Source: a virus (taxonomy: Duplodnaviria; Caudoviricetes). From it: a DNA stretch of 54,778 nucleotides. The notes beneath the pieces were generated by a model. It saw nothing but the letters and a program-made list of their open reading frames with translations, was not told the DNA's origin and made no database searches. The stretch covers positions 1 to 54,778 of the IMG/VR virus record IMGVR_UViG_3300028400_000008. One strand, given 5' to 3'. Each line of letters starts with the position of its first letter. The stretch's first letter is position 1. Of the stretch, positions 1 through 54,778 are shown piece by piece. A program made the position numbers and the translations under genes.

Positions 1-127
1 TGAAGCGAACCAATACTGGTGCAAGGACAATTAGAACCACAATACTTACTACATCGAACATCTCATACCCCTTCTTCATTTAATTTCACCCACCAACAAT
101 AGGTACTCCTGGAACCACAGGGGGGGG
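1..127. repeat. Terminal 127-bp direct repeat, left copy
   Basis: tgaagcgaaccaatactgg...gaaccacagggggggg is identical to 54652-54778. A length of 127 equals a common maximum assembler k-mer, so this is probably a circular-assembly overlap. Confidence 0.95.
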
Positions 128-351
128 TATCACCTTTGACGGTACTTGACACTTAGTGGAGTGGTTAAGCTCACACATTTTCACAATAAGCAATCATGTT
201 AGGCAGCATCTACAACAAACGCACTTGCGCATACGCCGTTGACTCAATCGAGCATCCGTATGTGTTGAATTACCAAACAGCAACTATTTATGCTATCAAG
301 CAATTGCGTCCATTGAGAACCAAATCATATCGGTTCAGGTGGTGGTTCAAA

Positions 352-369
352 TGATAAAATAGATATAAT
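352..369 (+). promoter_or_regulatory. Candidate sigma70-type late promoter (extended -10)
   Basis: TG-A-TAAAAT at 352-360 and TATAAT at 364-369, just upstream of the first gene of the 33-kb + strand operon. Confidence 0.5.
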
Positions 370-390
370 TCTTGCAAAAAAGGATTGACA

Positions 391-1080
391 ATGGGCAGAG
401 AGAGCTTGTTGAAAAAAGATGAGCTGAATGTCGATGACTTCATAAGTGCGCTACCGATAAAGGCAAGAGACAGAATAAGCAATGAGGATATGGAGGAGCT
501 TGACAGGCTGCAAAGGAAGTTTGGGTTCACAAGAAACGAACTTCTTGATAGCGTTGTAAAGTACTCATCTATCCTGGAGAAAAGAAAGACAAACTTCAAC
601 CATTTCGTGAACGCCATCATATTCATAAACTTCCTAAACCTTGGCGACAGCAAGAGCGATGCGTACAGGAAGACATTTCCAGAAAGACTAAAAAACAAAA
701 AAGGCGAATGGCTCACGCCAGACCAGATAGCGGTCAAGGCAAATAACTTCTATAACAACGATTTGGTGCAAAGCATGATAGAGATGCTACCGATGACGAA
801 CAATCTACTCTTTTTTAATGAGAGGATGAAGGCTATGAGGATAGCTGTTGATTTAATGGAAAACGCATCAAGCGACAAGGTAAAGATAGAAGCAGTAAAG
901 GTGGTTCTCGACAATACTAAGCCACCAGAAGAGATAAATGTAAATCTTAAAACCGATAGTAGGGCCGATGAACTGTTTGAGAAGTTGAGAACCACTGCTG
1001 AGCAGCAGGCAAGGCTGATAGAAAAAGGCCTTGATACGAATGAAATAATAAATGTGGAGTTGGATGATGAAACTGAATGA
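391..1080 (+). CDS. Putative terminase small subunit (N4 gp69-like position)
   Basis: About 229-aa helical protein directly upstream of and overlapping the large terminase. ATG at 391 follows AAAAGGA (ORF track starts at TTG 385). Confidence 0.6.
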   Translation: MGRESLLKKDELNVDDFISALPIKARDRISNEDMEELDRLQRKFGFTRNELLDSVVKYSSILEKRKTNFNHFVNAIIFINFLNLGDSKSDAYRKTFPERLKNKKGEWLTPDQIAVKANNFYNNDLVQSMIEMLPMTNNLLFFNERMKAMRIAVDLMENASSDKVKIEAVKVVLDNTKPPEEINVNLKTDSRADELFEKLRTTAEQQARLIEKGLDTNEIINVELDDETE

Positions 1081-2581
1081 ATATCTTGAAAAAGTAGATT
1101 ATAGATGGGAGAAATATAAGCCTTCAGTTGAAGCGCTAATGTTTGCAAATTTTATAAATATGGTGAACGCAGATAGGGGCGGAGAAGAGAACAGAACCCC
1201 ATTGGCACATTTGCATCTATTGGATACTATATTTAGTAAGACAAAAAGACATGTGGTTTGTGCCCACAGAGGGTTTGCAAAGACTACGCTACTAATGGAG
1301 TATCTGTTTTTGTTTCTTGCCGTTATGGGAGGAAGGTTTCCTAAATTCAATAAAAGCGTAAATGTTCTTATGTTCGTTGTAAACGCAATGGAGAAGGGTG
1401 GTTCCGATATACGAAGAAACATAGAGCACAGATACAAAAACTCATCATTCTTGCAAGACGAGCTTATTAAATTCAGTGCTACAGAAGGAAGAATATATGC
1501 TATGAATAAAGATGGGATAGAGGTAGCCGCAAGAATATTCGGAGCAAGGACTGGAGTGAGGGGGTTCAAGGAGTTTGGAGAAAGACCTAAGCTTGCGATT
1601 ATAGACGACATTATAAAAGACAATGAATTAAGTGAACCTTTTATGAATAGAATGAACGACTTGCTTGACAAGGGAGTATCAAACGCATTGCATCCATCCG
1701 TAAAAAAGACGATTTTCATAGGAACGCCATTTATGGAGAGCGATCCGCTCGTTAAAAAGATAAGCAATCCACATTGGAAGGCAAGCGTGTATCCAGTGGC
1801 TGAGAAGTTTCCTTGCAAGAAGGAAGAATTCAGATCATCATGGCCAGATAGATTTACATTTGACTATGTGCTCGACCAGTACAAATCGTTAAAAGCGGAT
1901 GGAAACGAACACGCTTTTTTTCAAGAGCTAATGCTTAAAATAAACTCTGACGAGCAGAGGCTAATAGAGGATATATCATTTATAGAACCACCGAGCTACA
2001 AGGCTTGTAACATCTATTTTACTACGGACTTTGCCACTGGTGGTTCAAGCAAGAACGACTATTCCGTTATAAGCGTATGGGCTGCAACGAAAGATGAAAA
2101 GCTTGTACTGATAGACGGAATATGCAAAAGACAAACGATGGACAAAAACATAGACGATTTATTCTATCTCGCCGCCCAATATAAGCCAATTCAGATTGGA
2201 CTTGAAGTATCTGGAGCGCAGCAGGGGTTCTTGACCTGGATACAAAAAGAAATGATCAAAAAAGGTATATTTTTCCAGATAAAAGAAGTTAGACCGCTAA
2301 AAGACAAATTCAGCAGGTTTTATGATGCACTTCCTATGCTAAAGAGTGGCAAGGTTCAATTTTCGACAAAGCTTCCAAAAGAGTTTGTATTAGAATTGAA
2401 AAATGAAATAAGCAAAGTAACGATGAGAGGTTTTAGAAGTGAGCATGACGATGTGCTCGACACTATCTCAATGCTGCTAAATTTGGATGTAGTGTATCCA
2501 AGCATGGCACAAATAGATACTGAAAGTTCAGTTTACGATGATGATTTTGAATATGATGAGGTAGGCGATTTATATGATTGA
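1067..2581 (+). CDS. Terminase large subunit, N4-like
   Basis: Walker A variant AHRGFAKTT, Walker B LAIIDDI, coupling motif IGTP, RuvC-like nuclease residues TTDFA...DYS...HDDVLD. GGAG RBS at 1056 favours ATG 1067. Confidence 0.92.
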   Translation: MKLNEYLEKVDYRWEKYKPSVEALMFANFINMVNADRGGEENRTPLAHLHLLDTIFSKTKRHVVCAHRGFAKTTLLMEYLFLFLAVMGGRFPKFNKSVNVLMFVVNAMEKGGSDIRRNIEHRYKNSSFLQDELIKFSATEGRIYAMNKDGIEVAARIFGARTGVRGFKEFGERPKLAIIDDIIKDNELSEPFMNRMNDLLDKGVSNALHPSVKKTIFIGTPFMESDPLVKKISNPHWKASVYPVAEKFPCKKEEFRSSWPDRFTFDYVLDQYKSLKADGNEHAFFQELMLKINSDEQRLIEDISFIEPPSYKACNIYFTTDFATGGSSKNDYSVISVWAATKDEKLVLIDGICKRQTMDKNIDDLFYLAAQYKPIQIGLEVSGAQQGFLTWIQKEMIKKGIFFQIKEVRPLKDKFSRFYDALPMLKSGKVQFSTKLPKEFVLELKNEISKVTMRGFRSEHDDVLDTISMLLNLDVVYPSMAQIDTESSVYDDDFEYDEVGDLYD

Positions 2582-3185
2582 TATAGTAAAAGACATAAAA
2601 GTTCTTGTGCCAAATACTTCATATAGCGATGAAGAGATAGCAAGAATAGTTGATATGGTATTCGATGAGATACAGGCTGAAGTAAAGCCGTTCAAATCCG
2701 CATTCAAGGTAACGCTTTATAAAGATACGGATGAATACGACTTGAATGAAATAGTGGAGGCTCAAGCGAATCTCGCTAACGAAAATCTGCATTTGCTTGA
2801 GATAACTCACATATCGGACCCACTTGGACTTGGAGCGAGACTTGTAAACAATGTCCTTGCGCAGGTGGTTCCAAAGAAGGATGGAGACTACATAATAGCA
2901 TTCGCCAATCTTGTGTTTGATTCATTTGACGCTATTCCAAGAAACGATAAATTCAAAATGAGACATGCGATTATATATGGAGCGACATCGAAGATAGTCG
3001 AGGCGCTTGGCCAGCAAGACCAAGAACAATATGCGAATCTTTTGTATCAGAGATTTTACAACGCAAAAAAGAAGCTTGCACAAATGGAACCACAATTCCT
3101 TGATTTCTCGATGCATATAGATAGTTGGCAATTCGATAACAAAGAGATATATTTTGATGGGAGATTGACAGATGTGGAATCTTAA
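2574..3185 (+). CDS. Putative head-tail adaptor (N4 gp67-like position)
   Basis: 203 aa following the terminase. Helical ends with a central beta region (FKVTLYKDTDEYDL), as in podovirus adaptors. Confidence 0.5.
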   Translation: MIDIVKDIKVLVPNTSYSDEEIARIVDMVFDEIQAEVKPFKSAFKVTLYKDTDEYDLNEIVEAQANLANENLHLLEITHISDPLGLGARLVNNVLAQVVPKKDGDYIIAFANLVFDSFDAIPRNDKFKMRHAIIYGATSKIVEALGQQDQEQYANLLYQRFYNAKKKLAQMEPQFLDFSMHIDSWQFDNKEIYFDGRLTDVES

Positions 3186-54013: not shown

Positions 54014-54071
54014 TGGTTGCTCCTTTTGATAAGATTTAAAATTCACTCACTAACTTCTATTTTTTGGTGAT

Positions 54072-54105
54072 AAAAAGAAGAGTTGGTGGATTAACCCACC
54101 AATTC
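54072..54105 (-). terminator. Rho-independent terminator
   Basis: GAATTGGTGG / CCACCAACTC stem followed by TTCTTTTT on the - strand. Confidence 0.65.
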
Positions 54106-54246
54106 GTATTGAGCATCAAGAATTGCAACTATTTCGGCAATCTTGACACCCATTTCGCCCAATCTTTCCCAAAGGTTATCTTCGCTGGATGCCCAAACTT
54201 CAATCTCTTTACCCCCTTCAAGGACAACAATATAAAGATTTTCCAT
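54091..54246 (-). CDS. Small acidic early protein (51 aa, not in ORF track)
   Basis: MENLYIVVLEGGKEIEVWASSEDNLWERLGEMGVKIAEIVAILDAQYELVG with AAGGAG RBS. Confidence 0.7.
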   Translation of the reverse strand: MENLYIVVLEGGKEIEVWASSEDNLWERLGEMGVKIAEIVAILDAQYELVG

Positions 54247-54561
54247 TTTCGACTCCTTTCAATTTATTTTTCATCTACCAACTATGATGGTGGTTCATAT
54301 ATGCAAAGTATATGTTGTGGTTCTATTTTGTGGTGATAGAAAAAGAACCAACGGCATTAAACCTTCAATTCTTTGCAGTTGTCCTGAAACCTTTTGGGGC
54401 GTAAATTTTTGGCTTCAGGAAGATATTCTCCCGTGAGCTAACTTCAATGATAGGCTAAAAATCGGTTGTTCAAATAAGCACAATGGTGTAATAGTTGAAT
54501 ATCAGATGTGGTTCATATAGTTGGAGTGCTGGTTCACTTCTATTCCTAAGTGAAATAAACA

Positions 54562-54590
54562 AAAAAAAAGAAGAACGCTAAGCGTCCTTC
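54562..54590 (-). terminator. Rho-independent terminator
   Basis: GAAGGACGC-TTA-GCGTTCTTC-T8 on the - strand (one G.U pair). Confidence 0.65.
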
Positions 54591-54730
54591 AGAACCTTCT
54601 CTAAATCCTTTCCCAATTTGGTTTTCTTGCTTGCCACATAGGCTCTATCAATGAAGCGAACCAATACTGGTGCAAGGACAATTAGAACCACAATACTTAC
54701 TACATCGAACATCTCATACCCCTTCTTCAT
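54578..54730 (-). CDS. Small single-TM protein, first early gene (50 aa, not in ORF track)
   Basis: MKKGYEMFDVVSIVVLIVLAPVLVRFIDRAYVASKKTKLGKDLEKVLKDA, ending in a terminator. Confidence 0.6.
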   Translation of the reverse strand: MKKGYEMFDVVSIVVLIVLAPVLVRFIDRAYVASKKTKLGKDLEKVLKDA

Positions 54731-54778
54731 TTAATTTCACCCACCAACAATAGGTACTCCTGGAACCACAGGGGGGGG
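54652..54778. repeat. Terminal 127-bp direct repeat, right copy
   Basis: Identical to 1-127. Confidence 0.95.

Follow-up and report, generated by a model that had tools for sequence, protein, structure and literature searches.

The sites of T7-type primases, 5'-(G/T)GGTC-3' and 5'-GTGTC-3', are 5-mers that are read by the zinc finger of a DnaG-type primase and reach the needed density by chance; to our knowledge, they are not enriched genome-wide. In Neisseriaceae and Pasteurellaceae, DNA uptake sequences occur about once per kb or more, in two orientations and within genes in all frames. They form hairpins between genes as inverted pairs and exist as one-letter dialects in related lineages; they are chromosomal features of competent bacteria and are read by a pilus protein. 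The stoperators of mycobacteriophage L5 (13 bp, about 30 copies) are mostly intergenic, oriented with transcription and read by one phage protein. Among AEP enzymes, the primase-polymerase gp28 of the marine phage NrS-1 recognises 5'-TTTGGTTA-3' and 5'-GTG(A/G)-3' via its helix bundle domain (PMC8718748), and ORF904 of plasmid pRN1 recognises GTG, again read by a helix bundle domain. In the sections of PMC7102993 that treat the NrS-1 site, the 8-nt requirement is called unusually long for such enzymes and two copies of the 8-mer are stated near the primase gene, as a proposed origin, whereas we counted one exact copy in the NrS-1 genome; the oligonucleotides shown there differ from those in the corresponding sections of PMC8718748. 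Finally, selection can raise a short host-type word above all other oligomers in the genome of a phage, as in the Chi-rich phages LLS (lambdoid; 23 Chi, 1 per 1.86 kb, 20 of them in one orientation and half clustered near one end) and P1 (50 Chi), Chi being the commonest octamer in both; in the passages concerned, Chi-rich lambdoid phages are described as having no recombination module of their own (PMC12315714).

In the 54,778-nt stretch of marine phage DNA analysed here (the window), the word GTGGTTC/GAACCAC occurs at 135 exact sites, the first at position 34 and the last at 54763-54769, corresponding to 2.46 per kb or about one per 400 bases. The original prediction of about 72 GTGGTTC and 60 GAACCAC is close to the plus-strand tally of 72 and 63, and its estimated chance level of about 4 agrees with dinucleotide-preserving shuffles (mean 3.42, sd 1.77, max 8), none of which reached 135 in 100 runs. 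As the first and last 127 bases are exactly identical, the unique genome comprises 54,651 bp with 133 sites (72 plus, 61 minus). The word is sharply bounded: each single-letter variant within the 7-mer occurs at most six times in the window, 96 of the 135 sites have the form GGTGGTTC, and G occupies position -1 in 96/134 sites and position +7 in just 5/134. The coordinates of the carpet and of associated features are collected in Table 1.

Table 1. Features of the window and positions of the word arrangements.
Feature	Position	Strand	Remarks
Carpet of the word	34..54769	.	135 copies, or 133 with the terminal repeat taken once; preferred form GGTGGTTC followed by a non-G base
Terminal repeat, exact, 127 bp	1..127 = 54652-54778	.	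two word copies inside, counted twice in the 135
Hairpin GAACCACC-N6-GGTGGTTC	21957..21977	.	directly after the major head protein gene
Hairpin pair GAACCACC-N7-GGTGGTTC	34723..34744	.	
HNH endonuclease	34975-35307		homologues in G433 and G004, none in G432 or G002
PD-(D/E)XK (Cas4/RecB-like) exonuclease	41012..41752	-	module common to carpeted G002, G432 and G433, 42-46% identity
Hairpin pair GAACCACC-N9-GGTGGTTC	41931..41954	.	between two ORFs
DUF669 protein	41958..42575	-	presumably SSB-like role
Sak4-like ssDNA-annealing ATPase	42794..43483	-	67% identity in G002
Candidate reader, helicase-primase-like, 686 aa	45033..47093	-	PHROG phrog_2135 'DNA primase', E 1.5e-62
Hairpin pair GAACCACC-N7-GGTGGTTC	47113..47134	.	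gap downstream of the primase gene
SF2 (ResIII / RadD-like) helicase	47942..49483	-	
Local cluster, 9 word copies	50514..50981	.	stretch mostly non-coding

The carpet resembles each of the above systems in part. Like the sites of NrS-1 gp28 and pRN1 ORF904, the word is short, asymmetric and G/T-rich, and the letters nearly coincide: the NrS-1 8-mer has TTGGTT in common with a TTGGTTC dialect found in related phages (see below), and GTGG lies inside GTGGTTC. The two differ in number, with one or two copies near the primase gene as opposed to about 130. The T7-type sites are likewise G/T-rich, C-ending on the lagging-strand template and usable every few hundred to thousand nt, but shorter and not dependent on enrichment. 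Uptake sequences match the word in density, orientations, frames, intergenic hairpins and dialects, whereas the window is a lytic-type phage genome and 0/526 bacterial genomes carry the carpet. With the L5 stoperators it shares the dozens of copies of an asymmetric word across a phage genome; the window word, however, has 7 bp and 133 copies, most of them in genes, and follows no orientation rule. The Chi-rich phages have about one site per 1.9 kb, with a prevailing orientation and a cluster near an end; the window sites are denser (1 per 0.4 kb), evenly spread in two orientations, and accompanied by the phage's own recombination genes.

The original prediction had claimed selection at the level of DNA and named an amino-acid- and codon-preserving shuffle as the test that could refute it. 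When synonymous codons were shuffled such that the protein and codon usage of each ORF were kept (300 runs), 24.4 +/- 3.9 in-gene sites were expected (max 37), compared with 113 observed in the 76 called ORFs; shuffling codon order in the same ORFs gave 4.8 +/- 2.1 (max 11). Tripeptides capable of encoding the word do so in 113 of 156 cases. All six frames are occupied (sense 32/22/9, antisense 20/16/14), and the non-coding ~5% of the sequence holds 22 of the 135 sites, an enrichment of about 3-fold, in line with the six-frame and intergenic use that had been claimed. The balance of orientations noted for both transcription arms was also found, with no strand or arm bias of the word seen in the window. 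Gaps between sites have a mean of 408, a median of 294 and a CV of 0.96, thus spacing is near random rather than regular; the per-strand means of 759 and 896 nt show both strands to be equally served. Selection on the word at the DNA level is supported: the enrichment outlasts shuffles that preserve proteins and codons, both here and in six related genomes; intergenic DNA and every reading frame contain the word; and relatives carry sharp one-letter variants.

These variants emerged when related phages were checked for the same or another heptamer. By sequence comparison, GTGGTTC is one dialect of a family-wide word, N-TGG-W-TC. The window, L022, L345 and G432 use GTGGTTC, G001 and G433 TTGGTTC(T), G002 TTGGATC/TTGGTTC, and G004 CTGGWTC. 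The corresponding NTGGNTC matrices are dominated by G..T in the window (135) and G432 (59), T..T in G001 (102) and G433 (125), T..A (157) and T..T (67) in G002, and C..T (68) and C..A (36) in G004. Observed counts exceed the synonymous-shuffle expectation in G432 (51 vs 12), G001 (80 vs 21), G433 (112 vs 33), G002 (199 vs 77), G004 (99 vs 33) and G430 (23 vs 4.7); by the same measure, enrichment is absent from G003 (6 vs 4.5) and G005 (0 vs 3.2).

Two structurally remote clades of marine phages, with portals of about 25% identity, carry carpets and have one replication module in common. Carpeted G432 and G433 share merely 25% (portal) and 21% (head protein) identity with the window, as compared to 48-50% for the primase and 45-46% for the exonuclease. 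Conversely, G003 is closer in its virion genes (portal 43%, head protein 51%), its primase match is limited to 28% over 202 aa, and it has no carpet. The trait thus tracks the replication module, not the virion module. All 11 viral loci with a homologue of the 686-aa primase (44-76% identity, one spanning residues 3-119 alone) are carpeted, as are 17/17 metagenome loci, at least six of which, judged by their length, are the same contigs as viral ones. Among 19 related records, full-length homologues are confined to G432 and G433, both carpeted; none was found in the 15 uncarpeted relatives, four of which show no more than a weak resemblance to residues 467-684 (19-30% identity). We found neither a carpeted genome known to be without the gene nor an independent lineage having gained it, and the co-occurrence is confounded by common descent and possibly by a common host. 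In the carpeted partial contigs L175/G430, L198/G431 and L146 (third portal clade) there is no primase, their sequence consisting of structural regions only. Together, shuffles, frames, dialects and the link to the module support the predicted dedicated cis-acting signal, from which we infer recognition by a phage or host protein.

The 686-aa protein appears to combine an MCM-like ATPase, a winged helix and a domain of AEP-primase type. The N-terminal part is a P-loop ATPase whose predicted fold is MCM-like; then come a predicted winged helix at about residues 359-421, the AEP-like domain (DxD at 496-498, H523), whose apparent assignment derives from PHROG profiles and motifs, and, at the C-terminus, a bundle of helices (about 600-686). 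The AF2 model has a pLDDT of 67, and its MCM matches have E about 1e-4 and TM 0.2-0.28. Sequence searches of Pfam, NCBIfam and PDB gave no match, a fold search with the C-terminal model gave no significant one, and no sequence similarity to NrS-1 gp28 was detected. The succession of an AEP-like domain and a helical bundle, fused to a helicase-type ATPase, is like that of the AEP enzymes, although the domain order differs from NrS-1-type enzymes in that the ATPase comes first and the primase last. In a first comparison, 18 residues were common to GTGGTTC-type primases, whereas a matched control gave 6. Once a third lineage of GTGGTTC type was included, only three columns (18, 66, 370) discriminated perfectly, compared to up to seven in control partitions. 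Hence we claim no specificity residues.

Since the word carpets both strands, varies among relatives and travels with the unusual helicase-primase gene, the data suggest a previously undescribed replication signal that extends over the whole genome; keyword searches of the open-access literature, which were not exhaustive, returned no account of a comparable phage carpet. The word is tentatively attributed, with a probability of about 0.4, to a template recognition (priming or loading) site of the fused helicase-primase, for which NrS-1 gp28 offers a precedent. Phage DNA would be unwound by the hexameric MCM-like ATPase, the word read on exposed single strands by the helix bundle or the winged helix, and a primer begun beside it by the AEP domain. 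Extension would fall to a polymerase, presumably the host enzyme, as a scan of 50 window ORFs detected no family of DNA polymerases. Chance alone would put about two 7-letter sites on each strand of 55 kb; selection would therefore have raised this to one site per about 760-900 nt and strand, a spacing on the order of Okazaki fragments, through codon choice, even amino acid choice, and intergenic hairpins. Related phages may then have retuned the reader and converted their sites, giving rise to the dialects. Against this reading, the dialects are not monophyletic on the primase tree, where L350 (GTGGTTC type) and L351/L352 (TTGGTTC type) are sisters at 99% support, NrS-1 does not use its 8-mer as a carpet, and a 6.2-kb run of the minus strand is free of sites.

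Alternatively, the word could be a host signal, most plausibly a Chi-like sequence of the host RecBCD/AddAB nuclease. The phage would gather it in both orientations, and each DNA end would then soon be protected or become a recombination substrate; the dialects would reflect different hosts. The recurrence of GTGGTTC and TTGGTTC in two structurally distant clades is consistent with this, as is the primase tree, in which GTGGTTC arises at least three times. A common host would also fit the window and L022, which have one dialect and a 58%-identical tail-region protein in common despite portals of 26-30% identity. Moreover, over G-N-T-G-G-W the words look like the Chi sequences of Proteobacteria (GCTGGTGG, GNTGGTGG, G(G/C)TGGAGG), and Chi-rich phages exist. 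Still, we consider this reading unlikely. The window encodes Sak4, a PD-(D/E)XK exonuclease and DUF669, unlike the lambdoid phages without a recombination module; its sites are balanced (72:61) without arm bias, unlike LLS Chi, and about 5 times as dense as Chi in LLS or P1. No carpet was found in 526 bacterial genomes: GTGGTTC peaks at about 0.18 per kb in 401 Gammaproteobacteria (2.46 per kb in the window), TGGTTC at about 0.5 per kb in 121 Campylobacterota, with a control nearly as high, and four other marine genomes gave the same result; this screen is blind to Chi-scale enrichment (about 1 per 5 kb).

Another phage protein of the replication module might read the word instead, which we regard as doubtful. 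The Cas4/RecB-like exonuclease or a partner could spare or process word-bearing DNA, providing self/non-self discrimination or a phage-owned recombination hotspot; or the winged helix of the helicase could bind double strands at the word, making the sites dispersed loading points. The exonuclease is present in 4/4 complete carpeted genomes (42-46%), where its co-occurrence with the carpet matches that of the primase. A dense cluster of copies in a non-coding control region also favours this reading, and the absent orientation bias fits double-strand recognition. On the other hand, no phage nuclease controlled by a word throughout the genome is known to us, and other module candidates are not universal: the HNH endonuclease is missing in two carpeted relatives (Table 1) and Sak4 has a homologue in G002 only.

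It is very unlikely that the word marks DNA modification or another defence-related host system, e.g. phosphorothioation, or a DNA-uptake-type signal. Phosphorothioation targets GAAC/GTTC and GATC, matching the G-W-T-C core, and every dialect ends in GTTC or GATC; the equal orientations and the inverted pairs in intergenic hairpins recall uptake sequences. However, of 501 GTTC in total (about 375 expected), 160 lie within TGGTTC, and outside the word GTTC is neither avoided nor enriched, so the 4-mer is not the target. The scanned window ORFs include no methyltransferase or dnd-like family, uptake signals offer no obvious gain to a lytic phage, and none of the sampled bacteria has the carpet. 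That the word itself serves no function, arising from mutational or gene-conversion drive or from codon or peptide preferences, is highly improbable: near-random spacing would fit, as would the recurrence of sites at homologous codons of diverged primase genes, for which saturation of the few peptides able to encode the word could account, but not the excess of about 5-fold over the protein- and codon-usage-keeping shuffle and about 24-fold over the codon-order shuffle, the non-coding enrichment, one-letter variants at background, or the lack of any trace in G003 with its related virion genes.

The N4-like affinity assumed in the original prediction is tentative: the portal has an SU10-type match as well as distant matches to portals of N4-like phages, and a 3046-aa ORF gave no Pfam or tblastn match. 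In the local cluster, three of the nine copies sit within a 27-28-bp repeated operator-like unit (50737-50800). The hairpin after the major head protein gene has a counterpart in L022, where the same word arrangement lies 3' of the phage's own head gene.

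The heptamer GTGGTTC/GAACCAC was found at 135 sites in the window, against 3.4 expected from dinucleotide shuffles, which bears out the enrichment claimed in the original prediction. The word comprises exactly seven letters; a G precedes it in 96 of 134 sites and follows it in just 5 of 134, and its one-letter variants remain at background. Inside ORFs, 113 sites were counted, versus 24.4 in shuffles keeping every protein and the codon usage and 4.8 after shuffling of codon order, and the enrichment thus survives the codon-preserving control. Codon choice and amino-acid sequence are therefore both bent towards the word, i.e. 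the proteins of the window themselves seem to accommodate it, and 113 of the 156 tripeptides able to encode the word do so (72% of peptide contexts). As proposed from the sequence, every frame is used, and a further 22 sites fall in the 5% of the genome that is non-coding. The two orientations are likewise about equally frequent (72:61 overall), with no strand or transcription-arm bias.

The 72 and 61 sites on the two strands have mean spacings of 759 and 896 nt and longest gaps of 2,454 and 6,243 nt, and copies are somewhat denser on the early/replication arm (3.15 per kb) than on the virion arm (1.93 per kb). A check for regular spacing, suggested together with the original prediction, came out negative, the sites being spaced near-randomly. 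A regular or paired-site architecture was also rejected from pair-distance histograms of four genomes, which had no common preferred distance; the sole pair features were a few short hairpin pairs and the palindrome TTGGATCCAA in G002, a phage relative of the window. Four tight inverted pairs in the window are hairpins with 8-bp stems, one of them just 3' of the head gene, and the viral locus L022 is arranged alike. The longest copy-free stretch may be recently acquired DNA; its GC content is normal (0.363 vs 0.373). Positional conservation of sites in the primase genes was set aside as a sign of age, since the handful of peptides that can encode the word is saturated. GATC is depleted in the whole window (128 observed vs about 375 expected, ratio 0.34); its enrichment in G002 is due to the dialect of that phage, which contains GATC.

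A portal-profile search returned 80 related viral loci, and the resulting portal tree has 82 rows. The window lies within a well-supported clade of 10, in nine of which TGGWTC is enriched 4-11-fold. The over-represented heptamer differs by lineage, a possibility raised along with the original prediction, and the NTGGNTC matrices are sharp: the window carries GTGGTTC (135), its relative G001 TTGGTTC (102, often GTTGGTTCT), G002 (complete, 61.6 kb) TTGGATC (157) and TTGGTTC (67), and G004 CTGGTTC (68) and CTGGATC (36). Codon-preserving shuffles confirmed the enrichment in each of these four genomes. The tenth member of the clade, G003, was read whole and is not enriched (6 vs 4.5, codon-preserving shuffle). 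Neither G005 nor most of the 71 more distant portal loci, judged on loci of up to 22 kb, are carpeted with such a word, and the same holds for Alteromonas phage PT11-V19, whose strongest 7-mer is just about 8-fold over composition. A few carpeted loci occur in the large portal clade (L175/G430, 23 vs 4.7; L146; and, weaker, L198/G431). A second carpeted clade consists of L022, L338-L341, G432 and G433, with portals just 25-27% identical to that of the window and with the dialects GTGGTTC and TTGGTTC, both also present in the first clade. A scan of viral contigs for the hairpin pattern gave mostly chance hits, L022 being the sole true carpet among the matches listed. In three uncarpeted portal relatives (L200, L145 and L154), TAGCTAA (37 vs 5.1), CTAGTTA (23 vs 2.4) and CTAGGTC (16 vs 1.2) are in moderate excess as judged against composition only; these may be different words of other lineages.

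The window comprises an IMG/VR virus record in full; the record has direct terminal repeats and a completeness rating of 100%. As the terminal 127-bp overlap is exact, the unique genome amounts to 54,651 bp. The proposed N4-like (Schitoviridae) affiliation holds for the SU10/N4-type portal (PF23899 SU10_portal, E 6.7e-88) and the virion gene order. No match to a DNA polymerase family was obtained in the 50 ORFs scanned, which include part of the small ones. By portal, the closest cultured phages are N4-like phages of Alteromonas (37-39% identity). The 3046-aa ORF sits where the giant virion RNA polymerase is expected and shares 23-24% identity with giant ORFs in G002 and G004; it is without Pfam match, and its central 1500 aa are without tblastn match. 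A homologue of the small HNH endonuclease is absent from G432 and G002, and in G433 its gene lies directly upstream of the helicase-primase gene.

Features of the window and their coordinates
Feature	Position	Strand or direction	Remarks
Rightward gene arm	~385 to 34,012	rightwards	terminase, 1732-aa tail fibre, SU10-type portal, head protein, 3046-aa ORF
Leftward arm, start	from ~54,700	leftwards	small early ORFs, SF2 helicase, 686-aa "primase", Sak4
Leftward arm, rest	to 33,990	leftwards	DUF669 protein, PD-(D/E)XK exonuclease, MazG-like, RepL-like, ThyX, HNH endonuclease
Longest copy-free stretch	4938-7384		2.45 kb, inside the tail-fibre ORF
Small HNH endonuclease	34975-35307	(-)	61-64% identity in G433 and G004, far over the genome average
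686-aa protein	45033-47093	(-)	candidate reader of the word
Four operator-like units, GTTCA-(A/T)5-TGAAC	50700-50800	minus	period 27-28 bp; a small ORF with its start near 50623 lies downstream
Perfect palindrome with 11-bp arms, TAAACCAGTGG ... CCACTGGTTTA	~50810-50845		inside a copy-rich non-coding region

The carpet travels with the replication genes. The carpeted genomes G432 and G433 are remote from the window in their virion proteins (portal 25%, head protein 21% identity) and share its replication module, i.e. the 686-aa protein (48-50%), the exonuclease (45-46%), ThyX (37-38%) and a MazG-like protein. The virion proteins of G003 are as near to those of the window as the ones of G002 are (portal 43%, head protein 51%); G003 matches the 686-aa protein at only 28% over 202 aa and is without carpet. 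In a direct protein search, 11 of 11 viral loci with a homologue of the 686-aa protein were carpeted, as were 17 of 17 metagenome loci, many of which are, judging by length, the same contigs; the metagenome scan gave no more distant homologues beyond the viral-collection set. Among 19 related records, a full-length homologue is confined to the carpeted G432 and G433, compared with 0 of 15 uncarpeted relatives, whose status was judged on loci of up to 22 kb; in four of these relatives, just the C-terminal domain is weakly matched. Across genomes, word and enzyme are thus found together, a co-occurrence confounded by shared descent. In summary, the finding is real and statistically extreme, and it reaches further than the original prediction: the signal spans the family, comes in dialects and is linked to a distinctive replication module. 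A keyword search of the open-access literature, which was not exhaustive, returned no description of a phage carpet of this kind.

In the 686-aa protein, a Walker A motif lies near residue 62. The AlphaFold model of the protein (8-sequence alignment, pLDDT 67) runs from an N-terminal alpha/beta ATPase through long helices and a winged-helix-like unit at 359-421 to a beta-rich domain (~470-600), in which DxD and H motifs are conserved, and ends in a helix bundle. With Foldseek, the N-terminal two thirds retrieved MCM subunits at modest scores (E ~1e-4, TM 0.2-0.28). The fold search with the C-terminal 232 aa gave RepB (best E 0.027) and PrimPol (E 0.3-1), none significant. PHROG "DNA primase" profiles match the protein (phrog_2135, E 1.5e-62; phrog_9765 on residues 478-575), and Pfam, NCBIfam and PDB sequence searches gave no match. 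Homology to gp28 of the marine phage NrS-1, or to any solved structure, was not found at the sequence level. The protein may thus reasonably be described, though without proof, as a fusion of an MCM-like helicase with an AEP-type primase. Dialect-determining residues were sought in the primases; a first count (18 vs 6) failed once a third GTGGTTC lineage and all control groupings were included, with 3 discriminating columns for the true dialect grouping and up to 7 for the controls. The GTGGTTC phages do not form a single branch of the primase tree.

In the leading proposed mechanism, to which we assign a probability of roughly 0.4, the word would serve as a priming or template recognition site of the 686-aa helicase-primase. 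PMC8718748 describes recognition of 5'-TTTGGTTA-3' and, more efficiently, of 5'-GTG(A/G)-3' by the AEP primase-polymerase of NrS-1, and ascribes site binding to the helix bundle domain; PMC7102993 stresses the unusual length of the 8-nt requirement. These recognition letters nearly coincide with the dialects of the window and its relatives. Unlike the window word, the likely origin word of NrS-1 is used once by our own count, or twice according to PMC7102993. In the NrS-1 genome (AB746912), the 8-mer TTTGGTTA was located on the minus strand at 17198, just after the primase gene; the two copies are stated in PMC7102993, and the oligonucleotide displayed there does not contain TTTGGTTA. On each template strand, copies of the window word are spaced on the scale of Okazaki fragments. 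A seven-letter requirement would by chance be satisfied at about two sites per strand, and one site per 760-900 nt on each strand would answer a need for continuous re-priming. A phage without its own polymerase would moreover depend on correct primer hand-off.

The priming reading has a more tentative extension, a replication identity code in which a helicase-primase with a 7-8-letter template requirement would replicate only DNA bearing the word that it recognizes. DNA of the host, of satellites and of competitors would thus be passed over by the phage replisome. The enzyme and the genome would evolve together, and related phages would be kept incompatible by their dialects GTGGTTC, TTGGTTC, TTGGATC and CTGGWTC. 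If true, no earlier case would exist of a virus with its entire coding sequence moulded by a primase of its own.

The main rival is a word imposed by the host, above all a Chi-like signal read by RecBCD or AddAB, which we consider unlikely. Chi-rich phages do exist according to PMC12315714, the dialects reappear in separate clades and in separate parts of the primase tree, and the window and L022 share both a dialect and a tail-region protein, a hint of a shared host. Conversely, the window has recombination genes of its own (Sak4, the PD-(D/E)XK exonuclease and DUF669), a module that Chi-rich lambdoid phages are reported to lack, and the word is 5-fold denser than Chi in LLS or P1. Chi is orientation-dependent, with 20 of 23 sites in LLS sharing one orientation (PMC12315714), unlike the 72:61 ratio observed here and the lack of orientation bias by arm in all six genomes examined. 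Furthermore, none of the 526 bacterial genomes sampled proved to be carpeted, i.e. 401 Gammaproteobacteria (including G054, G156, G311 and G323, flagged unpublished, and G263, flagged limited), 121 Campylobacterota and 4 others, or <1% of the species in the collection. Given the small size of this sample, the host-signal reading is not rated lower. In three Gammaproteobacteria (G317, G383 and G228), GTGGTTC is 2.5-5 times as frequent as the reversed control, e.g. 708 vs 142 in 5.7 Mb, and several other sampled genomes have long same-strand runs of the word, as in skewed oligomers. In the Campylobacterota genome G442 (C1:17016-21503), TGGTTC recurs 14 times with an exact 345-bp period, one step being 342 bp, a sign of a long tandem repeat that probably lies within a large gene.

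A ThyX-based scan of bacterial genomes for the host returned nothing, and the ThyX neighbours in the sequence atlas are viral. The window contains no tRNA genes, and its tail-fibre matches are to marine phages only (Vibrio, Pelagibacter, Roseobacter and others). Bacteroidota use few Shine-Dalgarno sites, and the strong Shine-Dalgarno use in the window argues against such hosts.

A different reader from the same phage replication module is about as unlikely as the host signal. A modification or uptake-type signal is very unlikely. DNA uptake sequences also occur in both orientations, in all frames and as inverted pairs between genes. They are dense in the chromosome of a competent bacterium, and no such carrier of the window word was found among the 526 genomes sampled; phosphorothioate modification was rejected, GTTC outside the word being at background. 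A functionless drive, in which the word would serve no purpose, is likewise very unlikely.

Short words that carpet genomes, such as uptake sequences, Chi and KOPS, are known as signals of bacterial chromosomes. The mark left on this phage genome is stronger than in any of those cases, and among related phages the one-letter dialects form a series that can be read. With the helicase-primase as reader, the group would offer a natural system for primase specificity and whole-genome co-evolution, a possible self/non-self rule for replication, and enzymes whose start sites are long and programmable. As a host signal, the word would instead disclose which Chi-like or other identity word uncultured marine hosts use, and allow host prediction from phage sequence. 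Under either reading, it is a simple metagenome marker for the window and its relatives.

Several minor elements were noted. Three of the four operator-like units contain the heptamer because GTG precedes them, and the array looks like a repressor or regulator array. The adjacent palindrome encloses TTATCCAC, which we take to resemble a DnaA box, and its region may be an origin. In the cultured N4-like phage vB_AmeP_PT11-V19 (L128, 1-50000), the 8-mers CAGGATCA, CAACAGGA and ACAGGATC occur 16-17 times each, which points to a repeat unit about 11 bp long, possibly a promoter. Repeats of GGTGGTTCC flanking (TA)n in enterobacterial proviruses were first taken for iterons of a related initiator, a link that was dropped because five of the records are without a homologue of the window primase. 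Seven such enterobacterial-type proviruses (L064, L062, L038, L024, L083, L023 and L049) carry GGTGGTTCC/GGAACCACC six to eleven times each, arrayed in direct and inverted orientation on the flanks of (TA)n, in L024 downstream of an ORF, an arrangement that resembles an origin or regulatory site.
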